In this document: positions 2,191 to 30,173 of the stretch, piece after piece | How the letters are laid out: every line of letters starts with the position of its first letter | How positions within the stretch are numbered: position 1 is the stretch's first letter | Source of the DNA: Caldimicrobium thiodismutans | GTDB lineage: Bacteria; Desulfobacterota; Thermodesulfobacteria; Thermodesulfobacteriales; Thermodesulfobacteriaceae | Direction of reading: 5' to 3' | Assembly (NCBI RefSeq): GCF_001548275.1 | Contig: NZ_AP014945.1 | Location: 1,230,001-1,262,000, forward strand | DNA length: 32,000 bases | Program-made: the position numbers and the translations under genes | The notes under the pieces: model-generated | Database searches by the model: none | What the model saw: only the letters and a program-made list of their open reading frames with translations | What the model was told of the DNA's origin: nothing

Positions 2191-3339
2191 TTAACTCCTG
2201 TAACTGGCATTTATTTTTATATATTCCTCAGTAAGATCACAGGTCAAGAGCCAGTAACTCTGTTTCCCCTGCTTAAGTTTGATAGATAGCTCAACCTCCC
2301 CTTTAAAAAGTTCTTTTTTAAGAACCTCCTCATCATTCTGCAGGGTCAACTCTTTGATCCAGGGAAGACCATTTAAAAAAAGTTCTACCTCTTCGGGTTG
2401 AAAGGGAAGCCCTGTTTTTCCAAGGGCAGAAAAGATCCTCCCCCAATTAAGGTCCTCTCCATAAAAAGCGGTCTTAACAAGAGGTGACTCTGCCACAGCT
2501 CTTGCTAAAAGCTCAGCCTCCTCCTTGGTTCTTGTGCCCTTTACCACTACCTTTATCACCTTTGATGCCCCCTCTCCATCCTTAACTATCATGTAAGCGA
2601 GATCCTGTAAAACCTCTGTAAAGGCATGCGAAAATTCTTTCCAGTCTTCTATATGCTTTTTTCTGCTTGCAAGTGCATAAACTGTATCATTGGTGCTCAT
2701 ATCCCCATCAACAGTTATTCTGTTAAAACTCTCTTCCACACCCTTTTGAAGAAGTCTTTTCAAGTCCTCCTTTGAAAGGATGCCATCTGTTAAAATAAAA
2801 GCCAGCATAGTAGCCATATTTGGTGCAATCATACCTGCTCCTTTGGCTATACCCAGAATTGAAATTCCCTCCTTCGTCTTGCGGGAAGACAGTTTTGGGA
2901 AGGTGTCTGTGGTCATAATAGCATGAGCAAAGGCAAGATAATGGGATGGAGAAAGGTTATTTATAAGTTCAGGAAGTCTCGGCAAGATTCTTTCAAGAGG
3001 GAGTTGCTCCCCTATAACACCTGTTGAAGCAGGTAGAATCTCTTCCTTTCGTAAGGAAAGGATCTGGGAGAGCGCTCCTAAAAGTTCCTCTGCCCTTTTT
3101 ATGCCTTCTATTCCCGTTGCTGCATTAGCAACACCACTATTAACTAAAATAGCCCTTGTGACTGGATTTTTGATATGACCCTTTCCCAGGATAACCGGAG
3201 CTGCCTTTACAGTGTTCTTTGTAAATACTCCCCAGGATATACCTTTATCTTGGCAAAAGATTAACCCAAGATCAAGACGATCCTTTTTTCTAATTCCAGA
3301 AGCTACTGCAGAAAACATAAATCCCTCGGGAATATACAT
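2191..3339 (-). CDS. argJ: bifunctional ornithine acetyltransferase / N-acetylglutamate synthase ArgJ
   Basis: The self-cleavage motif 'PNMATMLAFILTDG' is present, the C-terminus 'INASYRS' is typical, and an AGGAGG RBS precedes the start. Confidence 0.92.
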   Translation of the reverse strand: MYIPEGFMFSAVASGIRKKDRLDLGLIFCQDKGISWGVFTKNTVKAAPVILGKGHIKNPVTRAILVNSGVANAATGIEGIKRAEELLGALSQILSLRKEEILPASTGVIGEQLPLERILPRLPELINNLSPSHYLAFAHAIMTTDTFPKLSSRKTKEGISILGIAKGAGMIAPNMATMLAFILTDGILSKEDLKRLLQKGVEESFNRITVDGDMSTNDTVYALASRKKHIEDWKEFSHAFTEVLQDLAYMIVKDGEGASKVIKVVVKGTRTKEEAELLARAVAESPLVKTAFYGEDLNWGRIFSALGKTGLPFQPEEVELFLNGLPWIKELTLQNDEEVLKKELFKGEVELSIKLKQGKQSYWLLTCDLTEEYIKINASYRS

Positions 3340-3351
3340 CTTTTACTCCTC

Positions 3352-4110
3352 CTACGAATGGGGTTTAATAAGTAAAAGAAGGGCTGATATTAATAAAAAT
3401 ACATTTACAAGGTAATAATATACCCGATTACTCAACTTTCCATAAAGTTTTTGCCCAAAAAGCATACCTAAAAGTATTACAGGTAGATTTAGTATGTAAA
3501 TTTTCAAGAGTTCAACGGTCAAATTTCCGGTCAAATAATGATTTATAGCAGCATTAAAGGCAGAAAAGGCAAAAATAAGCTGTAAAGTAGCCTTAAATAG
3601 GTTTTTATCAAAGCGCAAAAGGGTAAGATACATAACAATGGGAGGCCCTGGAGTATTTAATATACCAGCTAAGAATCCAACTAAAAGGGCAATCAAAAGG
3701 GCCTTAGGTCTTTTGAAAACCTCAGGGTCAATATTGTCAGTAAATTTGAGATGTTGATGATATTTAAGCTGATAAATCTCCCAAAGAAAAAATATAAAAA
3801 TGGCTAAAAATAAAAGAATTCTTAGGCTATATTCGGAGGAAAGAGTAAAGCCTCTAACCCCAAGAAAAACCCCAAGTATTATTACTCCAAAAAATCTCAA
3901 GGGAATTTTAAGAATCCTTTTTTCCTGCAGGACAAATAACATAATTACATTTATGGTAAAAGAAAAAAGAGATAGAAGGGGAACCCCAAATTTTACTCCT
4001 TTTAAAAGGGCTATCAAAGGAAGGGCCATCAAAGCAAAGGCAAAGCCCACAAGTCCATGAACCAGGGCAGAAAGGAAAAAGATAAGGCTTAACAAAAGCG
4101 TCTCAGACAT
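3352..4110 (-). CDS. TSUP family (TauE/SafE-like) anion exporter permease
   Basis: A polytopic membrane protein of 252 aa. The 'VHGLVGFAFALMALPLI' start and the second-half repeat 'GFLAGILNTPGPPIVMY' match the duplicated 4-TM TauE architecture. Confidence 0.75.
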   Translation of the reverse strand: MSETLLLSLIFFLSALVHGLVGFAFALMALPLIALLKGVKFGVPLLSLFSFTINVIMLFVLQEKRILKIPLRFFGVIILGVFLGVRGFTLSSEYSLRILLFLAIFIFFLWEIYQLKYHQHLKFTDNIDPEVFKRPKALLIALLVGFLAGILNTPGPPIVMYLTLLRFDKNLFKATLQLIFAFSAFNAAINHYLTGNLTVELLKIYILNLPVILLGMLFGQKLYGKLSNRVYYYLVNVFLLISALLLLIKPHS

Positions 4111-4114
4111 TACT

Positions 4115-5089
4115 TCAGGAAGACTGAAGCTCCTTGTGGGTAGAAATTATTTCTGAGAGGGTGAAAAAGGATTTAAGCTCATAGCCTCTTTCTTTTAAGG
4201 CCTCTTTGCCCCCTTCCTCTCTATCAACCAGGGCAATAACGCTGATAATGTTCAAATCTTCTTTCTCACAGGCCTCTATAGCCTTTAATAGGGAACCCCC
4301 TGTAGTTACCACATCTTCAACTAAAGCAATTTTCATACCTTTGCAGAAATTGCCCTCGAGCTGTTTCCCTGTTCCATATTTTTTGGGTTCTTTGCGAATT
4401 AAAATGCCTTCAAGAGCTCTCTCTTCAGAAAGAGCCGCTGACAAAATTCCACAAACAATGGGATCAGCCCCCATACTCATTCCTGCAACGCCTTCAATAT
4501 CCGTATATCTCAACTCCTCCCAGAAAAGCTCTCCTATGAGCTGGTATGAGGGACCATAAAGGGTTATTTTCCGACAGTCAAGGTAATAGGGACTCTCTTT
4601 ACCACTGGAAAGTTTAAAGGGTTTTTCAGGACTATAAAGTAAAGCCCTTTCAAGTAAATAGGGCATAATCTCATTTTTTAAGAAAAAAACATTGAAGGCT
4701 TTGACAATTTGATGCGCTGTATCAAATTCTCCCAGGAATTTCTTTATCTCAAGTTCAGCTATTTCAGGGGAAGGGGCATTATAAATTATGTAATTTCTAA
4801 GATGCTGGAAAGATTCCTGAGGAATACTCATGAATTTAATGGCAAAACCTTTATCTTTATCAATTCGGACCACCCTTCCTTTCATAAAAACCTTAATGGG
4901 CGGATCGGCATCTTTAAGTAAAAAAATAAGATCCACTTCATCTTTTAATTCAGGGAAATTATCAGGATTTGCTATATAAAGCCCACCAAAACTCAGATCC
5001 TTTACAACTCCAGAAAAGATGCCCTTAGGACAGACAAATTCTACCTTTTCTTCAAAGGGCAAACGAAAAAATTTTCTTTTTTCGCGCAT
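4115..5089 (-). CDS. pyrE: PilZ domain - orotate phosphoribosyltransferase fusion protein
   Basis: The N-terminal ~100 aa carry PilZ signatures: 'RKFFR' (RxxxR) and 'DLSFGG' (D/NxSxxG). The C-terminal ~190 aa are PyrE-like, with 'KLSSGKESPYYLDCRKI' and the PRPP loop 'ALVEDVVTTGGSL'. No SD is visible before the ATG. Confidence 0.8.
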   Translation of the reverse strand: MREKRKFFRLPFEEKVEFVCPKGIFSGVVKDLSFGGLYIANPDNFPELKDEVDLIFLLKDADPPIKVFMKGRVVRIDKDKGFAIKFMSIPQESFQHLRNYIIYNAPSPEIAELEIKKFLGEFDTAHQIVKAFNVFFLKNEIMPYLLERALLYSPEKPFKLSSGKESPYYLDCRKITLYGPSYQLIGELFWEELRYTDIEGVAGMSMGADPIVCGILSAALSEERALEGILIRKEPKKYGTGKQLEGNFCKGMKIALVEDVVTTGGSLLKAIEACEKEDLNIISVIALVDREEGGKEALKERGYELKSFFTLSEIISTHKELQSS

Positions 5090-5245
5090 AGAGATAGTTT
5101 AATAGATTTTTTAAAAAAACCAACTTACTTGTATAGATCCTGCTCTTTTGAAACTTTGCCAAAATTTACACTTTATACTTGCTATTTCAAAGTTCTGCTT
5201 TAAATTAATCTTTAAGTAAAAATTTTTCAATAGCAGGAGGTGCCC

Positions 5246-5764
5246 ATGCTTAAAGAAGAAATGGAAAAAGCCCTTAATGAACAACTCAAATGGGAACTTT
5301 ATTCTGCTTATTTATACTTAGCCATGTCTGCCTATTTTGAGGATCAAGGATTGGAGGGATTTGCTCACTGGATGAAATCTCAGACCGCAGAGGAAATGAT
5401 GCATGCCATGAAGTTTTACAAGTTTATTGCAGAAAGAGATGGAAGGGTTGTCCTTGAAGAGATTCCCGCTCCACCTAAGGAATGGGAAAACTCTGAAGAT
5501 GTCTTTGATTTTGCTTATAAACATGAACAAGAGGTTACTGCAAGGATTAATAAACTTATGAGTTTAGCAAAAAGGCTTGAAGACTATGCTACAGAAAATT
5601 TCCTCCAATGGTTTGTAGAGGAACAAGTAGAGGAAGAGGCATCTTTTAAGTCCATACTTTCTAAGCTCAGGCTTATTAAAAATGACCCACAGGCCCTATT
5701 TTATTTGGATAAAGAGCTTGGCCAGAGGCCCATTGATCTTAATCTCCTTATGACTCAGGTCTAA
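5246..5764 (+). CDS. ftn: non-haem ferritin
   Basis: The ferroxidase-centre context 'ELYSAYLYLAMSAYF...EEMMHAMKFYKFI' is present. I prefer the ATG at 5246, which has GGAGG 5 nt upstream, to the GTG at 5240 used by the ORF track. Confidence 0.88.
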   Translation: MLKEEMEKALNEQLKWELYSAYLYLAMSAYFEDQGLEGFAHWMKSQTAEEMMHAMKFYKFIAERDGRVVLEEIPAPPKEWENSEDVFDFAYKHEQEVTARINKLMSLAKRLEDYATENFLQWFVEEQVEEEASFKSILSKLRLIKNDPQALFYLDKELGQRPIDLNLLMTQV

Positions 5765-6554: not shown

Positions 6555-7016
6555 ATGCTTGAAGGTAAGGTAGTTGCCCTTTCAGTAAGTAAAGAAAAAG
6601 GAGTTCCTAAGGAAAATGTTGAAGAGGTCCGCATTATAGAGAACTTTGGGATTGAAGGAGATGCCCACGCTGGTCCATGGCATAGACAGGTGAGTTTCTT
6701 AGATATATCCACTCTTGAGTGGATGAAAACTTTGGTGGGAAGACCCCTTGCCTTCGGAGAGCTTGCTGAAAATGTGACTACCGATGTGGATCTAACCAGA
6801 GTTGAGGTAGGAGATCGGATTGAGGCTGGGACATGCCTCTTTGAGGTTACTCAGATCGGTAAAAAGTGTCACCATGGATGTGCTATTTTTCAAAGGGTGG
6901 GTAAATGCGAAATGCGTAATCGCGGGATCTTCACTAAGGTATTAAAGGGTGGAATCTTAAGAGTAGGGGATCCCTTAAAAATTATAAAAAGAGGGCCTCA
7001 AAATGGAAAAGAATAA
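6555..7016 (+). CDS. MOSC domain-containing protein
   Basis: 'VSKEKGVPKENVEEV...GIEGDAHAG' together with a late Cys ('KKCHHGCAIF') is typical of small MOSC proteins. I chose the ATG at 6555 after the AAGGAGAGG RBS. The 3' end overlaps the next gene by 14 nt. Confidence 0.8.
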   Translation: MLEGKVVALSVSKEKGVPKENVEEVRIIENFGIEGDAHAGPWHRQVSFLDISTLEWMKTLVGRPLAFGELAENVTTDVDLTRVEVGDRIEAGTCLFEVTQIGKKCHHGCAIFQRVGKCEMRNRGIFTKVLKGGILRVGDPLKIIKRGPQNGKE

Positions 7017-8082
7017 GTTTATACCCAAACTTATTGCCTGGGAACTTACCAGAACCTGCAATCTTGATTGCATCCATTGCCGAGCATCAGCCTCTCAAGG
7101 CACCTATGAGGGAGAATTGAGCACAGAGGAGGTCTTCCGTATCCTTGAGGAGATAACAGAAGTTGGAAATCCCGTTATGATTCTCACAGGAGGGGAACCT
7201 CTCTTAAGAAAGGACTTACTCGAGATTACTGAGAAGGCTACCTCTCTTGGCTTAAAACCGGTGCTTGCCACCAATGGAACCCTTTTAACCAGGGAGATAG
7301 CTCTTGAACTTAAAAGGGCTGGAATCTCAAGGGTAAGCATAAGTCTGGATGGGGCAGATTCATCTGCCCATGATAATTTTAGAAAAATGCCCGGGGCTTT
7401 TGAGGGAGCCTTAAGGGGGATTCAAATTTTAAAAGAAGCAGGCCTCCCCTTTCAGATAAATACGACAATTACCGCTGTAAATGCTGAAGAGCTCCCTAAG
7501 GTGCACGAGCTTGCTAAGAAGCTGGGAGCAGTAGCCCATCATATCTTTTTACTCGTGCCTGTTGGAAGGGGAAAGGAACTTACAGAGGAAGCTCTCACTC
7601 CGGAAAGATATGAAGCTTTGCTTAACTGGTTTTATGAACAAAGGGAAAAATCTCCTTTGCATCTTAAGGCAACCTGTGCCCCTCATTATTACCGTATCAT
7701 GAGGGAAAGAGCACGGGCAGAAGGCAAAGAAGTCACCTATGAGACCTTTGGTCTTGATGCAGTAACTCGCGGCTGTTTAGCTGGAGTAGGTTTTTGCTTT
7801 ATCTCTCATAGAGGGATTGTGCAGACCTGTGGATATTTAGAGGTCCCCTGTGGTGACTTAAGAAAAAACACCTTTAAAGAGGTCTGGGAAGGTTCTGAAG
7901 TCTTTAATAAACTCAGAGACTTTAGCCTCTACAAAGGCAAGTGCGGAAAATGTGAATACATCAGGGTCTGTGGAGGATGCCGGGCCAGAGCCTATGAATT
8001 AACAGGAGATTACTTAGAAGAAGAACCCCTCTGCACCTATCAGCCTAAGAAAGCCTCCCTATTAAATCAAAAACAAGTGTAG
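7003..8082 (+). CDS. radical SAM / SPASM-domain protein, NirJ/AhbC/AhbD-like (alternative haem pathway type)
   Basis: The CX3CX2C motif 'CNLDCIHC', then 'LTGGEPLL' and 'FQINTT', plus a C-terminal Cys-rich SPASM region 'CGKCEYIRVCGGCRARA'. The radical SAM call is firm; assignment to the AhbC/AhbD/NirJ subgroup is tentative. Confidence 0.7.
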   Translation: MEKNKFIPKLIAWELTRTCNLDCIHCRASASQGTYEGELSTEEVFRILEEITEVGNPVMILTGGEPLLRKDLLEITEKATSLGLKPVLATNGTLLTREIALELKRAGISRVSISLDGADSSAHDNFRKMPGAFEGALRGIQILKEAGLPFQINTTITAVNAEELPKVHELAKKLGAVAHHIFLLVPVGRGKELTEEALTPERYEALLNWFYEQREKSPLHLKATCAPHYYRIMRERARAEGKEVTYETFGLDAVTRGCLAGVGFCFISHRGIVQTCGYLEVPCGDLRKNTFKEVWEGSEVFNKLRDFSLYKGKCGKCEYIRVCGGCRARAYELTGDYLEEEPLCTYQPKKASLLNQKQV

Positions 8083-13870: not shown

Positions 13871-15157
13871 TTATCCTACCTCCCTCAAGGTCTCTCTCAG
13901 GGCCTTGAGGGTTATCTCTATTTCCTTTTCACTATGAGCAAGACTAACAAACCAGGCTTCAAACTGAGAAGGTGGTAGATAGATACCCCTTTTAAGCATC
14001 CCCTGCCAAAAGCTTGCAAACCTTTCAGTATCACAAGAAAGGGCAGATTGAAAATCCGTAACCTCTTTATCTGTGAAGAAAAGGGTAAGCATAGATGAGC
14101 ATCTCACCACTTGATAGGGAAGAGAAAGTTCTTTAAGAATTTCCCTTATTCCTTCTTCAAGGGCTTGGGTAAGATTTTCAAGTCTTGCATAGGCACCAGG
14201 TTTTTTCAGCTCTTTAAGGGTAGCCAATCCAGCTGAAACGGCAATGGGATTTCCTGAAAGAGTGCCAGCCTGATAGACTGGACCCTCTGGAGCTATTAGA
14301 GACATAATATCAGCCTTACCCCCATAAGCCCCCACTGGAAGCCCTCCCCCTATAATCTTTCCAAGACAGGTTAAATCAGGTTTTATTCCAAAATGTCCTT
14401 GTGCTCCTCCAAGACCAAGTCTAAAGCCAGTTATGACTTCGTCGAAAATAAGAAGGGCTCCATATTTTTGGGTAATATCCCTTAAAAATTGAAGAAACCC
14501 CTCCTTAGGAGGGACAACTCCCATATTAGCAGGCACTGGTTCAAGAATAACACAGGCAATCTCAGAGCCATACTTCTCAAAGGCTTCTGTCACTTTCTCT
14601 TGATCATTAAAGGGAAGACTTATGGTATGTGTAGTAAGCTCATCTGGAACTCCGGGGCTTGAGGGAATGCCAAAGGTTGCAAGCCCTGAACCAGCTTTAA
14701 CAAGCAGGGAATCTGAGTGGCCATGATAACAGCCGTCAAATTTGACTATCTTTTTTCTGCCTGTAAAGGCCCGAGCAAGCCTCAGGGCACTCATTGTAGC
14801 CTCGGTTCCTGAATTCACAAGTCGCACCTTTTCCATTGAGGGGATACACTCTCGAATAAGCTCTGCCATCTCCACTTCAAGCCAGGTAGGTGCTCCAAAG
14901 CTTGTTCCCCTTTTACTTGCAAAATAGACCTCCGCAATCACATTGGGATGAGCATGCCCCAGAATAAGAGGCCCCCAAGAGGCCACATAATCAATATAGC
15001 GATTACCATCCGCATCAATTAAATATGCTCCTTCTCCTCTTTCAAAAAAGACAGGATTACTTTTTACAGCCTTACAGGCACGCACCGGGCTGTTTACTCC
15101 CCCTGGGATAATCTTTTGAGCCTTTTCAAAGAAAAGTTCTGACCTTAGTCTTCCCAT
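13871..15157 (-). CDS. hemL: glutamate-1-semialdehyde 2,1-aminomutase
   Basis: '[11 protein letters not shown]...' begins the protein and '[15 protein letters not shown]' carries the PLP lysine context. I chose the ATG (MGRLRS) 8 nt after AGGAGG. The track ORF's TTG start at 15175 falls inside that RBS. Confidence 0.92.
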
Positions 15158-15450
15158 TTTATCTTCCTCCTGCAATTTTTTGTTTATAATAAAAGCATGT
15201 CTCCTTTGCTAATAAAAAAAACGAGGGACAAGAACTCCATATCACTTAGGCTTAAAAGATCCAAAATGAGTCTGTCCCTCAACTCCCCATTTAGAAGGTT
15301 TAAGCTAAAAGCCATCGCCACACAGGAGGATGGAGTAGGGGACAACCTTAATTCTATTCCCATCAAATATTTAATAGAAGGATTAATAATTCCGAGGTGC
15401 TTTGCCATGTCTAACATTTTACCTTTCCCTATTTTCTAATAGTTGACTCC
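15158..15450 (-). repeat. bipartite intergenic repeat, copy A (between aldolase and hemL)
   Basis: Read in minus-strand sense, the upstream module is 15383-15450 and the downstream module is ~15165-15210 (GCAAAGGAGACATGCTTTTATTATAAACAAAAAATTGCAGGAGGA). They match copy B at roughly 57/68 and 40/45 nt by eye, while the interior diverges. The downstream module contains TAGCAA-17-TATAAA (15183-15211) and the hemL RBS. Confidence 0.7.
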
Positions 15451-19384: not shown

Positions 19385-19614
19385 AAGAAACCCCTGTCCT
19401 AAATTTTCCCTAAGTTTAGCAAAACTTTTCAAAAATACAAGAAAAATATATGGGGCCCTATCTTTTGAGATTTTTAGCTTACCTTTTTGGCAGATAAACC
19501 TGCGCTTCATTTTATCATTAACTATAAAGCCTCCCCTGTATAAATTTGTAAATCCTTTAGTTGGGCTAATATTTATTTGTCCAACCCTTTGATTGCAATC
19601 TGTAGTAAGTGGGC

Positions 19615-19722
19615 GAGTTTCAACATTAATGCAGGTGCAGCCAAAGGGAGCATTTCCTTTAGAAGTTGAGCAAATTTTGAAATTATTTGTAGGGGTTCAC
19701 GATTTTAAACCCCTACATTGGT
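19615..19722 (+). repeat. dispersed intergenic repeat, copy C (with 9-bp hairpin)
   Basis: AGTTTCAACATTAATGCAGGTGCAG ... GATTTTAAACCCCTACATTGG. It contains the perfect hairpin GTAGGGGTT-N10-AACCCCTAC (19689-19716) and is homologous to 30249-30328. Confidence 0.6.
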
Positions 19723-19931
19723 TATCCTTTATAAAAATAACACCTTTTCCTCAATTAAGGAAATTTCTTTGTTCCATACTTTTCAAGTTTTTTACCTTTC
19801 CTTTTTCTTGTAAGGATCTGAACTTATGCAGGAAAAAAGAAGAATCCTTTAAAACTCTTACTTTTAGTTGTAAAAATTTAAAATTAAGGTATGGTAAGGA
19901 TTTAAAATACCTTGGAAAGGAGAGGAAGAGT

Positions 19932-21212
19932 ATGCGTTTAGAGGTTGAAGAGAGAAGTTCTGTTGAGAAACTCTTAAACATTGAGGTTCCCCCAGAAGAG
20001 GTGAATAAAATTATAGAGGAGGTTACTGCTGAGGTCAGGAAAAGGGCCAAACTTAAAGGATTTAGAGAGGGTAAGGCTCCAGTTTATCTGGTAAAAAAGC
20101 TCTTCAAAGAGGAGATTGAAGAAAAGGGCATTGAGCGAATCATTCAAAAGACCTTGCCTTCTGCCCTTGAAGAAAAAAAGCTTGAGCCTTTACTTCGTCC
20201 TCGGGTGGAAAGTATAGATCGTCTCTCCGAAGGCGCACCCTTTAAATATAGCGTGCTTGTAGAAATTAGACCCTCCTTTGAGCTCAAAAAGGAAGACTAT
20301 CTTGGTCTTGAAATAGAAAGAGAAAAGGATGAGGTTAGTAACGAAGAAGTGGAAAAGATGCTTGAAGAGCTTAGATACTCCTTTTCCGAATTAAAAAAGG
20401 TAGATGAGCCTATAGAAGAGAGATTTGCAGCAGTAATCGCCTTTTCTGCTTTTGATGGGGACAACCTTATTCCAGGTCATCAAGCTGAAGCTCTTTTCAT
20501 TGATGTGGGAACGGGAGAGTTTAATGAAAAGGTTGAGAAAGAACTTATCGGTAAAAAACCAGGGGATAAATTAACTGTAGAGGTTGAATATCCTGAGTCT
20601 GCCCTTAATCCTTTACTTGCAGGAAAAAAGGTTCGTTATGAAATTGAGGTAAAGGAAGTTTACAAAAGAGACCTTCAGGAATTAACCGATTCCTTTGTTC
20701 AGACCTTGAATTTAGGTATAGATTCAGTAGAAAAACTCAAAGAGACCATAAAAGAAAGACTCCTTAAAGACAAGAGTAGAAAAAATGAAAATCAATATCG
20801 GGAAAAACTTATGGAAAAAATTCTGGAAAAGGTGGATTTTACTGTTCCCCAAAGATATGTTGAGATCAAATTTCATCAATTAGTTGAAAATTTAAGGGAA
20901 TCCTTAGAAAGAGAAGGACTAAGTTTTGACAAGATGACCCTTTCTCCGGAAAAGCTTAGAGAAAGACTTTATCCTGTAGCTGAAAAGCTCTCCAAGGAGG
21001 AGATAATCCTTGACAAAATTGCTGAATTAGAGGGGATTGAAATTAGTGATGAAGAGATTCAAAGGCAACTTCAGGTCATTCAACAGGGGCTACAGGTTCC
21101 CCTTGAAGAGGCAAGCAGGATTGTTTATTATAATATTTTACCAAAAATGTTAGCTGAAAGGGTTATGAAATTTCTTGTGGAAAATTCTAAACCTGTATAC
21201 AAGGAGAATTAA
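19932..21212 (+). CDS. tig: trigger factor
   Basis: '[24 protein letters not shown]...' has typical Tig N-terminal and PPIase architecture at 426 aa. The RBS GGAAAGGAGAGG precedes ATG 19932. The track ORF's 113-aa N-terminal extension from 19593 crosses a repeat and is rejected. Confidence 0.9.
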
Positions 21213-23072: not shown

Positions 23073-25511
23073 ATGAGGAAAAAAGTTGAACCTAAGGAAG
23101 GCTTAATGAGTCTTCCCCTTTTACCTTTAAGGGAGATTGTAATTTTTCCTAACACTGCTGTGCCCCTTTTCATTGGGAGGGCAAAAAGCATTCAGGCTAT
23201 TGAATCTGCTTACAGAAATAATAAACTCCTTTTTCTATCTGCACAGAAGGATCCCAAAAAGGATAATCCTGATGAAGAAGATATATTCAAAGTTGGAACT
23301 CTTTGCAAAATAGTTCAACTCTTGAAGCTTCCAGATGGTTCTTTAAAGATTTTGGTTGAAGGGCTTAACCGTGGAAGAATTGTAAGATTTATTCCCAATC
23401 CAGATTATTTTCAAGTGGAAATTGAGATTAAGACTGAGGTCCTGGAGTCTGATGTAGAGACTCTGGCCCTTTTTAAGCTCTGTAAAGAGGCCTTTGAAGA
23501 GTATGCCCAGTTTAATAAAAAGCTCAATCCTGAAACAGTTTCAGCCCTTCTTCAAGTAGAAGACTCCGCTGAACTTGCAGATAGAATGGCAGCCCTTCTT
23601 CCTCTCTCCCTTGAACAAAAACAGAAGCTCCTTGAAATAGTAAGTGTCAAAAAGAGGCTTGAGAATCTTCTTCAATTTCTTAGAGGTGAGCTTGAGGTTA
23701 TTAAAACAGAAGCCCGTATTCGTGAGCGTGTCAAGAAGCAGATGGAAAAGCACCAAAGAGATTACTACCTCCAGGAGCAAATGAAGGCCATTCAGAAGGA
23801 ACTCGGGGAAAGAGAAGATGGTAAAAGTGAGCTTAATGAGCTTGAAAATCGTATTAAAAAGAAAAAGCTCCCCAAGAATGTCTCAGCTGTAGTTTGGAAA
23901 GAGTTTAAAAAACTAAGTCTTATGTCACCTATGTCTGCTGAGGCAACGGTGGTTAGAAATTACATAGACTGGATCCTTAGTCTTCCCTGGTATGAGAAGA
24001 CCAAAGATGTAATTGACCTTGTAAAGACAGAAGAACTCTTAAATAAAGAACATTATGGTCTTGAAAAACCCAAACAGAGAATTATTGAACATTTAGCGGT
24101 TCAGAAACTTGTTGATAAAATTAAGGGGCCTATCCTTTGCTTTGTCGGTCCTCCTGGAGTTGGAAAGACCTCTCTTGCCAGATCTATAGCCAAGGCTCTG
24201 GGCAGAAATTTTGTAAGGATCTCCTTAGGTGGAGTGAGAGACGAGGCAGAGATCAGAGGACACAGACGGACCTATGTAGGTGCTCTTCCTGGAAAAATCA
24301 TTCAGGGAATGAAAAAGGCAGGCAGTATTAATCCTGTCTTTTGTTTGGATGAGGTGGATAAGATTGGGACGGATTTTCGTGGAGACCCAGCAGCAGCCCT
24401 TCTTGAGGTTCTTGATCCCGAACAAAACCACTCTTTTCAGGATCACTATCTTGAACTTGAATATGATCTCTCTCAGGTCTTATTTATTACCACAGCCAAT
24501 ACCCTTTATACCATTCCTGCCCCGCTTTTAGATAGAATGGAGATTATTGAACTTCCTGGATACACAGAGGAGGAAAAACTTGAAATTGCAAGGAACTATC
24601 TTATTCCAAGACAGCTTGAGACGCATGGTTTAAAACCTGAATGGCTACCTTTAAAGGATAGAGTTCTTCTTGAACTTATTCGGCGTTATACCCGTGAGGC
24701 AGGAGTAAGAAATCTGGAAAGAGAGATTGCCACAATTTGTAGAAAGGTAGCTAAGGAGGTGGCTAAAGATCCTCATACCTTCAAGCCTTTTAAAATTAAT
24801 ATGTCTGTTCTTGAAAAATTTCTCGGTGTGCCCAGATATAGATATGGACTTGCAGAGGAAAAATCTCAGGTGGGTATTGCAACCGGTCTTGCCTGGACCG
24901 AAACGGGTGGGGCCTTACTTCAGATTGAAGCAGTAATTATGCCAGGAACAGGAAATCTCAAGATTACAGGAAAGCTCGGTGAGGTAATGCAGGAATCAGT
25001 TCAGGCAGCGATGAGTTATGTGAGATCAAGAGCCCTTCAACTTGGTCTCCCCCTTGACTTTTACAAAAAGGTTGACATCCATGTGCATGTGCCTGAAGGG
25101 GCTATCCCGAAAGATGGGCCAAGTGCTGGAATAACCATTGCTACAGCCATAGTTTCTGCCCTGATGAAGATTCCTGTGAAAAATACTGTGGCTATGACCG
25201 GAGAGATTACTCTTAGAGGAAGAATTCTTCCCATTGGAGGTCTAAAAGAAAAACTTCTGGCTGCAGTAAGGGGTGGTATAAAGACAGTGATTATCCCTAA
25301 GGAAAATGAAAAGGATTTAAAGGAAATTAATCCCAAGGTTTTAAAGGGTCTTGAGATTGAGCTTGTGGAAAGTATGGATGAGGTTCTAAAGATAGCCCTT
25401 GAGGTTGAAAATCCTGATGCCCTCTTTAAAGAAACGCCCTATCTTGATGTTTGGGAACTTGTTAGTCTTGAAGAAAAGGTCGGAAAAGAAAATTTTCAGA
25501 TAGAGCACTAA
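23073..25511 (+). CDS. lon: Lon protease (endopeptidase La)
   Basis: '[23 protein letters not shown]' (LON N-domain), Walker A 'GPPGVGKTS' and '[12 protein letters not shown]' (catalytic Ser) are all present. An alternative start at MSLPLL (23106) is possible. Confidence 0.93.
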
Positions 25512-25520
25512 ATATCCAAA

Positions 25521-25546
25521 AGAGGAGGCAAAGGCCTCCTCTTTTC
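25521..25546 (+). terminator. Rho-independent terminator after lon
   Basis: AGAGGAGGC-AAAG-GCCTCCTCT (9-bp perfect stem) followed by TTTTC. Confidence 0.8.
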
Positions 25547-25600
25547 AAAAATTTTAATTATTTATTAAAATCCTTAATTAATCTTATTAAAAATTTTTAT

Positions 25601-25628
25601 TTGACTTTTCCTAAATATTCTGTATAAA
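25601..25628 (+). promoter_or_regulatory. sigma70-type promoter of the cytochrome gene
   Basis: TTGACT (25601-25606), a 16-nt spacer, then TATAAA (25623-25628). The GGAGGGG RBS and the ATG at 25662 follow. Confidence 0.5.
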
Positions 25629-25661
25629 AAGTTAAAAAATTTTTAATAAAAGGAGGGGCTT

Positions 25662-26945
25662 ATGTTTAAAGAGCGATGGTATGTATGGCTTTTAACATTT
25701 TTGTTTCTTTTTATGCCTTTGACTCTTCAAGCTTCAAAGGTTAGCAAGAAGGCTAAAACTGTTGATGAATTGATTGCCATGTATGATTCATCCGAGTGTT
25801 TAAATTGCCATGCTGATATTGCAGATCAATGGCAAAAAAGTTTACACGCAAGATCCATCTTTGGCACAGGAAGGACTATTGCAACAATTTTTACCACTTA
25901 CAATGTGGGGCTTAAAAATTTTCCACATGCCGGGGTAAAAGACATCAAGGATGTAAAAGTTGAACACCTTATGCTTTGTGCCAAATGCCATTTACCTCAA
26001 CTTAAGGATGCTGAAGATAGTGTAGCTCAAGAAATTTTGAAATTAGCTGTTGATTACATGCAAGGAGATGAAAAGACCTCTGAAAAAGCCAAAGAAAAAC
26101 TTGAAAAGCTAAATATTAACTGCCTTATCTGTCATCAGAGAAACGCCGTGATCCACAAATGGGTTGATGGTTATCCTCAGAAAGATACTGTTTATGGTTC
26201 AAAAAATGTTGAACACCCCTTTGGGAAAATGCCCAAAATCAAGGCCTTAGATACCATGAAGGAGTCCATCTTCTGTGGACAATGCCATGGTCTTGGACCT
26301 AATTTAGAGTTAGATGAGCCATCTCAGTGTGCAACCCTTTATGGCTATTATCTCTGGAGTTATGCAGCCAAAGGAGGGGCTAAGACCTGTCAGGATTGCC
26401 ACATGAGAGAAAGTGGACTGGGACACAATATTCAGGCCTATAGAGACAAAAAGATGCAAGAGATGGCTGTAGATTTCCATACCTATGCCAGACCTATTTA
26501 CTGGAGGGATGGTGCAGTAATAAAGCCTATGATTTATGCTCAGGTGGAAATTAAAAACAAAACTGGACATGCTATTCCTGATGGCTGACCAACTCCCAAC
26601 AGGCTGGTCCTGGAAGTGACCGCCAAAACTCCAGATGGAAAGGTGGTTTATCATGATAGTAAAATTTATATGCCAGTTCCCCAACAACTTGGAAGGCTTG
26701 ACCGCATGGGAAGAGGACCATATGATAAATCAGGCATCCTTGTGGACTGGGCCTTACATCCCCTTGAGGAAAAGAAAGAGGATTATAGAATCCTTGTGCC
26801 TGCTAAAGAGGGGAAACCAGAATCTTTGGAATATATAGTAGAATTTGAGCTCTGGTATCACCCCTTTGGAAAGAAAGATGATTATTCTCAGCTCTGGAGA
26901 AAGACTACCCAAAAGATCAAATTTACAAGTAAAGAACCTTATTAA
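25662..26945 (+). CDS. secreted pentahaem c-type cytochrome; single frame interrupted by one in-frame TGA at 26586-26588 (selenocysteine candidate, or nonsense pseudogene)
   Basis: The protein has a signal peptide and five CXXCH motifs (CLNCH, CAKCH, CLICH, CGQCH, CQDCH). Track ORFs 25662-26588 and 26616-26945 share one frame, with no other stop between them. The break falls in '...NKTGHAIPDG|TGA|PTPNRLVLEVTAKTPDG...'. The only terminator follows 26945. Confidence 0.6.
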
Positions 26946-26960
26946 GAGGTAATTTGTAAA

Positions 26961-26990
26961 GGGGGGGGAGATTTTCTCTCCCCTTTTTTA
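26961..26990. terminator. bidirectional terminator between the cytochrome gene and rho
   Basis: GGGGAGA-TTTTC-TCTCCCC (26965-26983) is flanked by an A-rich run on one side and TTTTTTA on the other. It sits between convergent genes. Confidence 0.7.
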
Positions 26991-28286
26991 TTGATTCATA
27001 ATACTCAAAAATTCCTCGTTAGATTTGGTATCCTTCATCTTTTCAATTAAAAACTCCATACACTCAACGGCACTCAATGGGGCAAGCACTTTTCTTAAGA
27101 GCCAGACTTTGTGAAGGATATCTGTAGGTAAGAGGAGTTCTTCTTTACGGGTTCCACTGAGATGGATATCAATAGCAGGCCAGATCCTTCTATCTGCAAG
27201 TCTTCTATCAAGAACAATCTCCATATTTCCTGTCCCTTTAAACTCTTCAAAAATTACCTCATCCATGCGAGAGCCTGTGTCAATGAGACAGGTTGCAATG
27301 ATGGTGAGACTTCCTCCTTCTTCTATGTTTCTTGCAGCACCAAAAAATCTCTTAGGTTTATGCAAAGAATTAGCATCAATTCCACCGGAGAGGAGTTTAC
27401 CACTGCTTGGCACCACAAGATTATAGGCCCTGGTTAAACGGGTAAGACTATCAAGAAGAATTACAACATCGTATTTACATTCCACTAATCTTTTGGCCTT
27501 TTCAATAACAACCTCAGCAACCTGAGTATGTTTCTGAGGGGGTTCATCAAAGGTAGAGCTGATAATCTCTGCCTTTGGAACAATCCTTTGCATTTCTGTT
27601 ACCTCTTCAGGTCTTTCATCAATAAGAAGAATTATGAGATAAATTTCAGGGTAATTATTTACGATTCCATTTGCTATATTTTGTAAAAGGACAGTCTTAC
27701 CAGTGCGAGGAGGAGCCACAATAAGCCCCCTTTGGCCTTTTCCAACTGGAACGAAGAGATCTATCACACGAGTTGAATAATTATCTGGTGAGGTTTCAAG
27801 GCGCAACCACTTATTGGGATGAATAGGAGTTAGATGGTCAAAGGGTGTGCGAGTCCTAACTATCTCAGGAGAAAGATAATTTACCTTTTCAATCTTAGCT
27901 AAGGCAAAATATTTTTCTCCTTCCTTGGGCTGACGAATAGTTCCAAAGATAAGGTCTCCGGTCTTTAAACCAAACCTTCTGATTTGAGGAGGAGAGACAT
28001 AAATATCTTCAGAACTTGGAAGATAATTATAATCTCTGAAGCGTAAAAAACCAAAACCTTCAGGTAAGACCTCAAGAAGGCCCTCTACAATGACTTCAAC
28101 ATCTCTAAGAAGTAGGGCCTGAACAATTTGGTAAATAACATCGGTTTTTTTATAAAAGGTATAGATATTTTCTATCCCGAGAGCCTCAGCAAGCTGATAT
28201 AACTCAGTAAGACTCCTTTGTCTAAGTTCAGAAAGAAAAAGAGGACCTTTTTCTAAAGAACTCAATTCTTGGTATTCCCTTTCCAT
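26988..28286 (-). CDS. rho: transcription termination factor Rho
   Basis: The N-terminal Rho_N '[15 protein letters not shown]', the RNA-binding 'GFGFLR', Walker A 'APPRTGKT' and '[26 protein letters not shown]' are all present. Confidence 0.95.
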
Positions 28287-28622: not shown

Positions 28623-30173
28623 TCAATTTATTTTTTCCCAGAAAAAACTCTTAAGATTCCTCTCCCCTGAGGAAAACTCAATCCCAATAAGATAAATCTC
28701 TTTGAATGAACCCTCATACTTCTTATGATACCCCTTCTCCTTAAGTTGAGCCAAAGCTTTACCCTCTCCCTCCTCTCCCTCAACCACCTTGAACTCAAAA
28801 AGATATGCCCTATCCCTGTATAGCACCGTTAAATCAATCTGCCCCTTATTGGTTATATCCTCGGGGATTACCTCAAGCCCTGACCCACATAAAAAGGCAT
28901 AAAAACAACTGGCATAATACCCCTCATAACGGGAAAGCTCATTTTTCCTGAACCAATCATGGGGGATCCCTGCGTAAAGACCCTCAAGAACCCTCTTCAT
29001 CTTCTCAAACTGATTTCCCTCAAGAGCCAAAAGAAAATCCCTTGTCTTTAAAGAAACTTCCCCTGTATCCCCTGTAAAATACTCAGCAAGCACCTCATTT
29101 AAGGCTAACTTTACCTCCTTATTGGGATAGGAAAGCTCATAAAGAATCTTATCTGCAAGGCTAAACATTCTTTTTATGGTAAGATAGCCCGCTTGAAAAA
29201 GGAGATTCTCAGGCCGCACTCTATCTATATCAAAGGACCCAATGAGAGTGTCTGTTGCCACAAGATTTTCAAGCTCTGGAATAAAAAAACGCTTCTCCAT
29301 TAAAAGCTTTACAAGAAAACTGGGAGTCCCTGTCTCAAACCAGTAAGGGTGAAAGGTTCTTTTCTCAAGATAGAGAAGCACATCAAAGGGATTGTAAACG
29401 GGTTCACCCAGCCAGGAATAACCATTATACCAGCATTTTATAAGCTCTAAATCCTTATCCTTCAGTTCCTCTCCAAAGACCTCTTCAAGCTCTTTCTGAG
29501 TGTATCCACAGATTTCTGCAAATCTCTTATCAATGGTAATATCATTTAACTGATTTAGCCCAGAAAAAAGGGAGACCTTTGAGAATTTGGAAACCCCGGT
29601 TAGGAAAACAAACTTGAGCTGAGCATCAAGGGGTTTAAGAACACTATAAAAATTCTTAAGCACATCTCTTACTGCCTTTGCGGTCTCTCTATCCTCAATG
29701 CAATCAAGAATGGGTTTGTCATATTCATCAACAAGAACTACAACTTTTTGCTTATACTTCTCGTAACTTTTAAGAATTAATTCTTCAAAACAGCTTCTGT
29801 AATCATCAAGATATTCACATTCTATTTGAAGAGTCCTCTGGCATCTCTTAAGCTGGATAAGAATCCATTTTTTTAATTCTTCGGCACTGCTTACATCTCC
29901 TCCTCCAAAGTCAATATGAATAACAGGATACTTAACACTCCAGTCCCAGTTCTTTTCAAGATAGAGCCCCTGGAAGAGCTCCTTTCTTCCAAGGAAGGCC
30001 TGCTTTAAGGTATCCACAAAAAGGGATTTTCCAAATCTCCTTGGGCGAGAGAGAAAATAATAAGTTCCTTCTTCAACAAGCTTTGCAACAAAGGGAGTTT
30101 TATCCACATAATAATAGAACTCACTTCTAATCTTTTCAAAGCTTGAAATTCCGATGGGAAGTTTTTTCTCCAT
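28623..30173 (-). CDS. AAA-ATPase-like protein with C-terminal PD-(D/E)XK nuclease domain (DUF1703 architecture)
   Basis: The N-terminus 'LPIGISSFEKIR...YYVDKT...FLSRPRRFGKSL' is the predicted AAA-ATPase family signature with a Walker A-like GKS. The C-terminus 'GQIDLTVLYRDRAYLFEFKV' gives the D...E-x-K nuclease motif. Confidence 0.8.
   Translation of the reverse strand: MEKKLPIGISSFEKIRSEFYYYVDKTPFVAKLVEEGTYYFLSRPRRFGKSLFVDTLKQAFLGRKELFQGLYLEKNWDWSVKYPVIHIDFGGGDVSSAEELKKWILIQLKRCQRTLQIECEYLDDYRSCFEELILKSYEKYKQKVVVLVDEYDKPILDCIEDRETAKAVRDVLKNFYSVLKPLDAQLKFVFLTGVSKFSKVSLFSGLNQLNDITIDKRFAEICGYTQKELEEVFGEELKDKDLELIKCWYNGYSWLGEPVYNPFDVLLYLEKRTFHPYWFETGTPSFLVKLLMEKRFFIPELENLVATDTLIGSFDIDRVRPENLLFQAGYLTIKRMFSLADKILYELSYPNKEVKLALNEVLAEYFTGDTGEVSLKTRDFLLALEGNQFEKMKRVLEGLYAGIPHDWFRKNELSRYEGYYASCFYAFLCGSGLEVIPEDITNKGQIDLTVLYRDRAYLFEFKVVEGEEGEGKALAQLKEKGYHKKYEGSFKEIYLIGIEFSSGERNLKSFFWEKIN

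Follow-up and report, generated by a model that had tools for sequence, protein, structure and literature searches.

A UGA-containing pentahaem cytochrome gene of Caldimicrobium thiodismutans, a probable orthologue of the Geobacter selenoenzyme MccSep (ExtKL)

The Geobacter enzyme and its counterpart in Caldimicrobium

In Geobacter sulfurreducens, the extKL gene (GSU2937-2936) was predicted to encode one selenocysteine (Sec)-containing five-haem cytochrome within the extHIJKLMNOPQS cluster (PMC5877670). We describe here a gene of the same family, interrupted by an in-frame UGA codon, at positions 25662-26945 of a 32-kb stretch of Caldimicrobium thiodismutans DNA (contig NZ_AP014945.1, positions 1,230,001 to 1,262,000), hereafter the window. 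The protein of G. sulfurreducens PCA was purified by Mihara et al. (Sci Adv 2026; PMC13510729) under the name MccSep, with 0.96 Se and 4.9 Fe per subunit, and its Sec-containing peptide VEMTNHAGHSIPDGUPTPNR was detected by mass spectrometry. The preliminary description of the window locus had rightly pointed to this precedent, in which ExtK and ExtL are read as one selenoprotein: what had been a prediction (PMC5877670) is now proven by mass spectrometry, selenium content and crystals (PMC13510729). MccSep is a periplasmic homotetramer, cleaved after residue 25, that reduces polysulfide and, less well, selenite, and it is needed for the respiration of elemental sulfur (PMC13510729). In its crystal structures, haem 2 is ligated by H122 and C239, and U325 of the immunoglobulin (Ig)-like C-terminal domain lies alongside; the variants U325A, U325C, C239H, R83A and K372A lose function, U325C being nearly inactive (PMC13510729). 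The same authors grouped 637 homologues into five clades, mostly from Desulfobacterota and Nitrospirota and including Thermosulfurimonas dismutans (Thermodesulfobacteria; TDIS_RS01570), and found that the Cys types arose within Sec clades; that the taxa include sulfur disproportionators was noted only (PMC13510729). ExtKL (NF040886) also figures among the known prokaryotic selenoprotein families in a 2026 review (PMC13188914).

For the searches, Cys was put in the place of Sec to link the two parts of the window protein. The resulting full sequence matched the NCBIfam equivalog NF040886, "multiheme c-type cytochrome (seleno)protein ExtKL", with 568.9 bits (cutoff 250, E=5e-171) over positions 4-422 of the 423 of the model, and the MccSep chains of PDB entries 9wt8-9wtc with E ~3e-146 over residues 28-424 (9wt9_A/9wt8_A). 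Identity to Geobacter MccSep was ~57%, and Pfam yielded generic multihaem domains only. The five CXXCH motifs aligned with those of the NF040886 family. Counting along the printed alignment to the PDB chain, we recovered all five key residues of MccSep (R83 as R71, H122 as H110, C239 as C223, U325 as U309 and K372 as K356). As judged from this alignment, the residues for a His/Cys ligation of haem 2 (H110/C223) and the helper residues R71 and K356 are conserved in the window protein. We conclude that positions 25662-26945 are very probably one gene for a periplasmic pentahaem c-type cytochrome selenoprotein, the orthologue of MccSep, whose UGA is recoded to Sec. The object itself is already known: the selenoenzyme of which it is the orthologue has been characterised in structure and function, and the family is recognised by a curated equivalog model. 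For Caldimicrobium, a polysulfide-reductase activity and its part in physiology are predicted by homology.

One reading frame across the UGA codon

Direct reading bore out the preliminary description of an open reading frame (ORF) with a signal-like N-terminus and five CXXCH motifs that is split by an in-frame TGA. The frame opened by the ATG at 25662 comprises 308 codons and ends at TGA 26586-26588, right after ...NKTGHAIPDG. Past this TGA the same frame runs on as PTPNRLVLEVTAK... for 118 sense codons (not 119, as first counted) up to the TAA at 26943-26945, and the joined length of 427 aa (308 + Sec + 118) had been given correctly. It had also been noticed that this TAA is followed by the only strong terminator; the scan of 25300-27200 indeed found its sole terminator-like hairpin there (Table 1) and none between the TGA and the TAA. 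A six-frame scan of the window returned TGA 26586 as the sole TGA linking two long ORFs into a coherent protein which, together with the presence of the same TGA in all the homologous genes described below, indicates that the layout is more than chance.

The protein search covered 5.8 billion proteins and gave more than 1,000 homologues. Most of them were ORFs of ~305-325 aa ending exactly at ...GHxIPDG, and a minority were full-length (~440-480 aa). The preliminary description had suggested looking at whether Sec or Cys occupies the UGA column and whether homologues are single polypeptides. In the full-length homologues (alignment A1), this column contains Cys in eight (DG-C-PT...) and G, I or V in four diverged ones, and the Cys types are single polypeptides. 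We also fetched the 80 best homologous loci, which cover Caldimicrobium and other Thermodesulfobacteriaceae, Nitrospirota/Thermodesulfovibrionales, Dissulfurispiraceae, Desulfuromonadales/Geobacter and Desulfobulbaceae; with the window and a tandem paralogue they make up a set of 82 genes. TGA occurs at the identical codon in 82/82 of them, with the flanks GHxIPDG-U-PTPNR[LV]VL.

The orthologues from Thermodesulfobacteriaceae share 72-90% amino-acid identity with the window protein. In comparisons with ten of them, the ratio of non-synonymous to synonymous differences (pN/pS) over the 118 downstream codons was 0.11-0.29, at pS 0.55-0.73. The length of the downstream part is held at 118-122 codons, with the frame kept, in all close orthologues, and the nine codons between the TGA and a GTG at 26616 (PTPNRLVLE) count among the best-conserved ones in the family. 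The pN/pS values show purifying selection on the downstream part, which indicates that the gene is translated past the TGA.

Other explanations of the split frame have to be weighed against these data. If the TGA were a recent nonsense mutation, it would cut a former Cys-containing cytochrome and leave the 118 downstream codons decaying; in one sequence an in-frame stop is indistinguishable from such a mutation, and no sel genes are visible in the window. Yet TGA stands at the same codon across phyla, and the downstream codons show strong purifying selection with frame and length kept and with no terminator before the TAA, which makes a pseudogene extremely unlikely. The chance that the TGA was created by a sequencing or assembly error is negligible: all orthologues carry it, and it is present as well in a contig of the public run SRR12829159 that shows 100% identity across 1,597 nt and that may share its source with the window. 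Taken together, the conserved TGA, the purifying selection and the kept length rule out that the TGA is a recent nonsense mutation or a sequencing error and that it separates two independent genes. The preliminary description had offered Sec insertion and a very recent nonsense mutation as the two options. The latter falls with the conserved TGA and the selection downstream of it; Sec insertion, which we infer for Caldimicrobium, is favoured by the conservation of the TGA in the 80 loci, its alternation with Cys, the purifying selection and the match to NF040886.

The older ExtK/ExtL annotations correspond to two genes, which would here encode a 308-aa pentahaem cytochrome and a 109-aa protein starting at GTG 26616. 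ORF callers do list 25662-26588 and 26616-26945 as two ORFs, hundreds of ~310-aa database "proteins" end at PDG, and under selenium limitation a 308-aa shortened by-product is likely. However, GGAAG directly adjoins the GTG, which is therefore a start codon without a usable ribosome-binding site, as had been pointed out initially; the highly conserved PTPNRLVLE would fall between the two genes, and the Cys-type homologues are single chains. In Geobacter, an antibody to the C-terminal part sees only a ~49-kDa band, and the crystal shows one chain (PMC13510729). Two separate genes are thus highly improbable. There is also a small probability that the UGA is read through as another residue, either by near-cognate suppression (Trp, Cys or Arg) or after a lineage-wide reassignment, the Sec machinery of the source genome not having been observed directly. 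Against this, TGA is the stop of 4/25 other genes in the window, where family models would place the gene ends, and the genetic code is therefore standard; Sec/Cys alternation at one column is the classic selenoprotein signature, and in Geobacter mass spectrometry finds Sec at a position where Cys leaves the enzyme nearly inactive (PMC13510729). We thus retain Sec as the residue encoded by the UGA.

Some homologues depart from the common pattern. Two Sec-type copies lie side by side in one Nitrospirota genome, with TGAs at L012:5024 and L012:6931. On contigs L084 and L085 (genes 2660-3996 and 4001-5368), a non-Cys copy, with Ile at the site and the motif PDSISSNHR, is located directly upstream of a Cys-type copy; non-Cys forms are without the catalytic residue and may therefore do something else. 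The Cys-type homologues P0012 and P0016 have CFKCT or CFQCS instead of the haem-2 CXXCH (columns of window C106-H110). They are without the proximal His at haem 2, and may therefore bind this haem differently or not at all. The gene of P0012, with TGT at the Sec position, comes immediately after a full-length selB of the same orientation, ~120 nt lying between the two (L082:1810-5356, L083:257-3803); this Cys form beside selB may be the trace of a recent Sec-to-Cys switch. Finally, NCBI-derived entries titled 'multiheme c-type cytochrome ExtKL' are just 307 aa long (e.g. P0009, P0054, P0069). They stop at the Sec codon, so that the selenoprotein is mis-annotated in public records even where it is recognised.

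Table 1. Features of the mccSep/extKL locus in the window (SECIS, selenocysteine insertion sequence; MFE, minimum free energy)
Feature	Position	Strand	Basis
Candidate promoter, TTGACT - 16 nt - TATAAA	25601..25628	+	read by eye
Shine-Dalgarno AGGAGG, 5 nt before ATG	25651..25656	+	direct reading
mccSep/extKL orthologue (probable), one 427-codon gene (308 + UGA-Sec + 118, then TAA)	25662..26945	+	NF040886 and PDB MccSep matches
Predicted Sec-type signal peptide, residues 1-24, hydrophobic, ...LTLQA|SK	25662..25733	+	read from sequence
Haem 1 motif CLNCH; C46, C49, H50 invariant	25797..25811	+	reading and alignment A1
Arg71, equivalent of MccSep R83 (anion/substrate-binding residue)	25872..25874	+	PDB-chain alignment; invariant in A1; role from PMC13510729
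Haem 2 motif CAKCH, active-site haem; H110, equivalent of MccSep H122	25977..25991	+	reading, alignments, PMC13510729
Haem 3 motif CLICH	26121..26135	+	reading and alignment A1
Haem 4 motif CGQCH	26274..26288	+	reading and alignment A1
Cys223, equivalent of MccSep C239 (distal axial ligand of haem 2)	26328..26330	+	invariant in A1; PDB-chain alignment; role from PMC13510729
Haem 5 motif CQDCH	26388..26402	+	reading and alignment A1
UGA very probably read as Sec, U309, equivalent of MccSep U325	26586..26588	+	TGA in 82/82 genes; Cys in full-length homologues; Geobacter U325 by mass spectrometry and crystallography
C-terminal Ig-like beta-sandwich domain, 118 codons, Sec loop at start	26589..26942	+	aligned to MccSep chain through residue 424; domain description PMC13510729
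SECIS candidate H1, CAGG / loop CUGGU / CCUG, 4 bp, 11-nt spacer after UGA	26600..26612	+	direct reading
SECIS candidate H2, GGC-U(bulge)-GGUCC / loop UGGAA / G-U(bulge)-GACC-GCC, 8 bp	26602..26624	+	MFE fold
Lys356, equivalent of MccSep K372	26727..26729	+	PDB-chain alignment
Intrinsic terminator, G-rich stem then T-run	26958..26988	+	terminator scan

A 150-nt AT-rich gap separates lon from the cytochrome gene. Because of the final A in its -10 hexamer, the candidate promoter of Table 1 is omitted by the consensus promoter scan, which lists just weak 9/12 sites at 25542-25571.

The mRNA after the UGA codon

Three mutually exclusive pairings, H1, H2 and H3, are possible after the UGA (Table 1); in H3, the UGA itself (GACC) pairs with GGUC at nt 21-24. 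H1 and H2 overlap and therefore exclude each other. H1 is the hairpin that the preliminary description had put forward as the possible apex of a bacterial SECIS. It exists as described, with its 11-nt spacer, and coincides in position with CCGAC-UGGUUCU-GUCGG, the hairpin of the Geobacter clade (nt 15-31 after the UGA), but it is not the best-supported structure. In 55 aligned non-Geobacter homologues, 78.6% of its cells were paired, against 73.6% after a slide of +1, and the covariation that had been looked for was not seen, H1 showing no compensatory change. Folding the 48 nt that begin with the UGA gives H2 as the MFE structure (-10.4 kcal/mol). In the 55-sequence alignment 81% of its cells were paired whereas slid registers fell to 21-56%, and it does have compensatory pairs: at pair 18-38, 42 sequences have GC and seven have AU, and at pair 24-33 one has AU. 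Its covariation score was reached by 0/500 shuffles. By inspection, Thermodesulfovibrio-type sequences share the base and the loop-closing pair of H2, in a hairpin whose register is bulge-free.

Folding of 26580-26660 against dinucleotide shuffles gave no signal (z = +0.5), and synonymous-recoding tests were therefore adopted. Recodings that preserve the peptide fold at -4.9 +/- 2.7 kcal/mol, compared to the native -10.4 (z = -2.06), and 4% of them fold as well as the native sequence. In the same test on 73 distinct Sec-type sequences, the mean z was -1.14, with 85% of the values below zero. Among 137 windows along the gene, those after the UGA come 3rd to 5th in stability excess. Codon choice is also unusual for a window of 39% G+C: the hairpin uses CUG (5% of the Leu codons of the window) for its two Leu residues and GUC (16%) for its Val, and these rare codons are retained. 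The 55 non-Geobacter sequences are invariant at U20-G21-G22 and U26-G27, which, by inspection, are also kept in the excluded Geobacter-type ones; UGGU at nt 20-23 after the UGA is invariant. The nucleotide-level constraint after the UGA is real. In the clade of the window gene, H2 appears better supported than H1, and either hairpin may be the one that SelB uses.

Several observations weigh against a selenoprotein with the function of MccSep at this locus. None of the 28 ORFs of the window is selA, selB or selD, and none of its three tRNA genes encodes tRNA-Sec. Nor does the locus have the ExtHIJ and ExtM-S genes that accompany extKL in Geobacter, and the Caldimicrobium gene therefore belongs to the MccSep/ExtKL protein family but not to an ext cluster. 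On the RNA side, RNAalifold gave no consensus structure for the 55 aligned post-UGA segments, and no single SECIS structure is conserved family-wide, the hairpin register differing among clades. A permissive Rfam scan of 26400-27000 returned nothing at the SECIS and only weak matches to the terminator hairpin. The stability excess after the UGA is not unique within the gene, and the Cys-type or non-Cys controls, five sequences only, gave mixed z values from -2.55 to +1.30. The enzymatic function, finally, is transferred by homology at ~57% identity.

The window contains no other credible in-frame TGA that would mark a second selenoprotein gene, no SelB gene stands beside the 80 homologous loci, and our literature search found nothing tying Caldimicrobium to selenocysteine. 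Elsewhere in the cytochrome gene, two 48-nt stretches, at 25716-25763 and 26247-26303, exceed the stability of their synonymous recodings by as much as the post-UGA region does (z = -2.9 and -2.6); one of them lies where the signal-peptide region ends.

Genomic context, possible role and comparison with known systems

The cytochrome gene is preceded on the same strand by tig, clpP, clpX and lon, and followed by the convergent rho. The order clpP-clpX-lon-mccSep/rho is conserved in Caldimicrobium loci, the nearest of which is ~82% identical in nucleotide sequence. ExtH (rhodanese), ExtI (porin-like) or ExtM-type neighbours are found in only 19/80 loci, 18 of which are Desulfuromonadales, Geobacter-type or related Thermodesulfobacteriota. 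The remainder of the window holds housekeeping genes (ribF, surE, argJ, ferritin, moaC, ahbD, coaBC, ilvC, hemL and others). Among them are two haem-synthesis genes, at 7003-8082 and 13871-15175: ahbD (TIGR04545, 549 bits), whose product is the haem b synthase of the sirohaem-dependent alternative pathway, and hemL. Their presence in one window with the cytochrome gene fits an organism making c-type cytochromes via the Ahb route. For trigger factor, the listed ORF (19593-21212) opens with TTG and has 539 aa, and its match to the tig model does not begin before about residue 114-126. Translation probably starts ~110-125 codons after this TTG, and the long extra stretch at the N-terminus overlaps the intergenic region by the cupin gene. 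Between tRNA-Asn/rho and the indolepyruvate oxidoreductase gene, the minus strand encodes at 28623-30173 a protein of 516 aa that combines a predicted AAA-ATPase domain (PF09820) at its N-terminus with a PD-(D/E)XK nuclease domain (PF08011) at its C-terminus. Such an architecture is often mobile or defence-associated; here it is found in the midst of housekeeping genes.

In the mechanism that we propose, the UGA at 26586 would be recoded to Sec by SelB and Sec-tRNA(Sec), under the direction of an mRNA hairpin located inside the next ~40 nt of coding sequence. The N-terminal helical domain of the protein would hold the five haems, with haem 2 ligated by His110 and Cys223 by homology to MccSep. 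In the periplasm, Sec309 would act as the nucleophile attacking polysulfide (or selenite) beside the Cys-ligated haem 2. A Se-S-S(Cys) intermediate would form, and electrons arriving via the other four haems would reduce it and release sulfide.

Cultured members of Caldimicrobium disproportionate elemental sulfur (PMC12998232), and the stand-alone MccSep of this genus could therefore be the sulfide-producing reductive half of S0/polysulfide disproportionation, with the oxidative branch, not an Ext-type conduit, as its source of electrons. We put this role forward as a tentative and rather doubtful possibility. A 2026 survey of disproportionation mechanisms is without 'selen-' words, 'cytochrome c' or 'polysulfide reductase' (PMC12998232), and the link between MccSep and disproportionation is absent from the disproportionation literature checked. 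If true, this proposal would give a poorly understood pathway a concrete selenium-dependent enzyme.

That the in-frame UGA of a multihaem cytochrome was correctly read as Sec from the sequence alone validates the first-reader method. The biology added is little, the family already having its NF040886 model, a place in the 2026 review, crystal structures, mutants and a polysulfide-reductase function. The value of the locus for annotation is that gene callers still split or shorten this gene, hundreds of ~310-aa entries, some of them named ExtKL, ending at ...PDG. Its context shows the gene at work in a stand-alone, conserved locus and not in the Geobacter ext cluster, and for physiology it offers a candidate selenium-dependent step in thermophilic sulfur disproportionation.

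Among known systems, the His/Cys-ligated multihaem sulfur enzymes TsdA and SoxAX resemble MccSep in using a Cys-ligated catalytic haem on S-S chemistry (PMC13510729); unlike MccSep, they act in the oxidative direction, have no Sec and are unrelated in sequence. The Cys-type MccSep homologues (e.g. P0012, P0014, P0047) have the same architecture and a DG-x-PTPNR/PTTTR motif in a single ORF, but with TGT or TGC in place of TGA, and neither the H2 hairpin nor its CUG codons are kept. In Escherichia coli fdhF, the minimal SECIS begins 11 nt downstream of the UGA and is a hairpin of 17 nt that contains a bulged U and carries GGU in its loop. The Caldimicrobium mRNA resembles it by the 11-nt spacer of H1, by UGGU at nt 20-23 and by the bulged U residues and G-containing apical loop of H2. 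It differs in that H1 has only 4 bp and the loop of H2 lies 4-5 nt further downstream, and no curated RNA model matches.

The closest characterised relative is Geobacter MccSep itself, with which the window protein shares a full-length collinear alignment, five CXXCH motifs, a Sec codon placed in GH(A/S)IPDG-U-PTPNR, the His and Cys ligands of haem 2, the equivalents of Arg83 and Lys372, a signal peptide (predicted in the window protein) and a C-terminal Ig-like domain; in both genes, a hairpin-forming stretch directly follows the UGA. The hairpins differ in sequence and register, being CAGG-CUGGU-CCUG or GGC-U-GGUCC...GACC-GCC here and CCGAC-UGGUUCU-GUCGG in Geobacter. The hosts differ as well, the present one being an AT-rich thermophile of a genus known for sulfur disproportionation, not for acetate-driven S0 respiration. 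Whereas the Geobacter gene sits inside extHIJKLMNOPQS with a rhodanese (ExtH), the porin-like ExtI and bc-type partners, the Caldimicrobium gene stands alone, with its own Shine-Dalgarno sequence and terminator. The orthologues from Thermodesulfobacteriaceae, including Caldimicrobium (L001-L011), have the same TGA, the same synteny and the same CUGGUCCUGGAAGUGACC core after the UGA.

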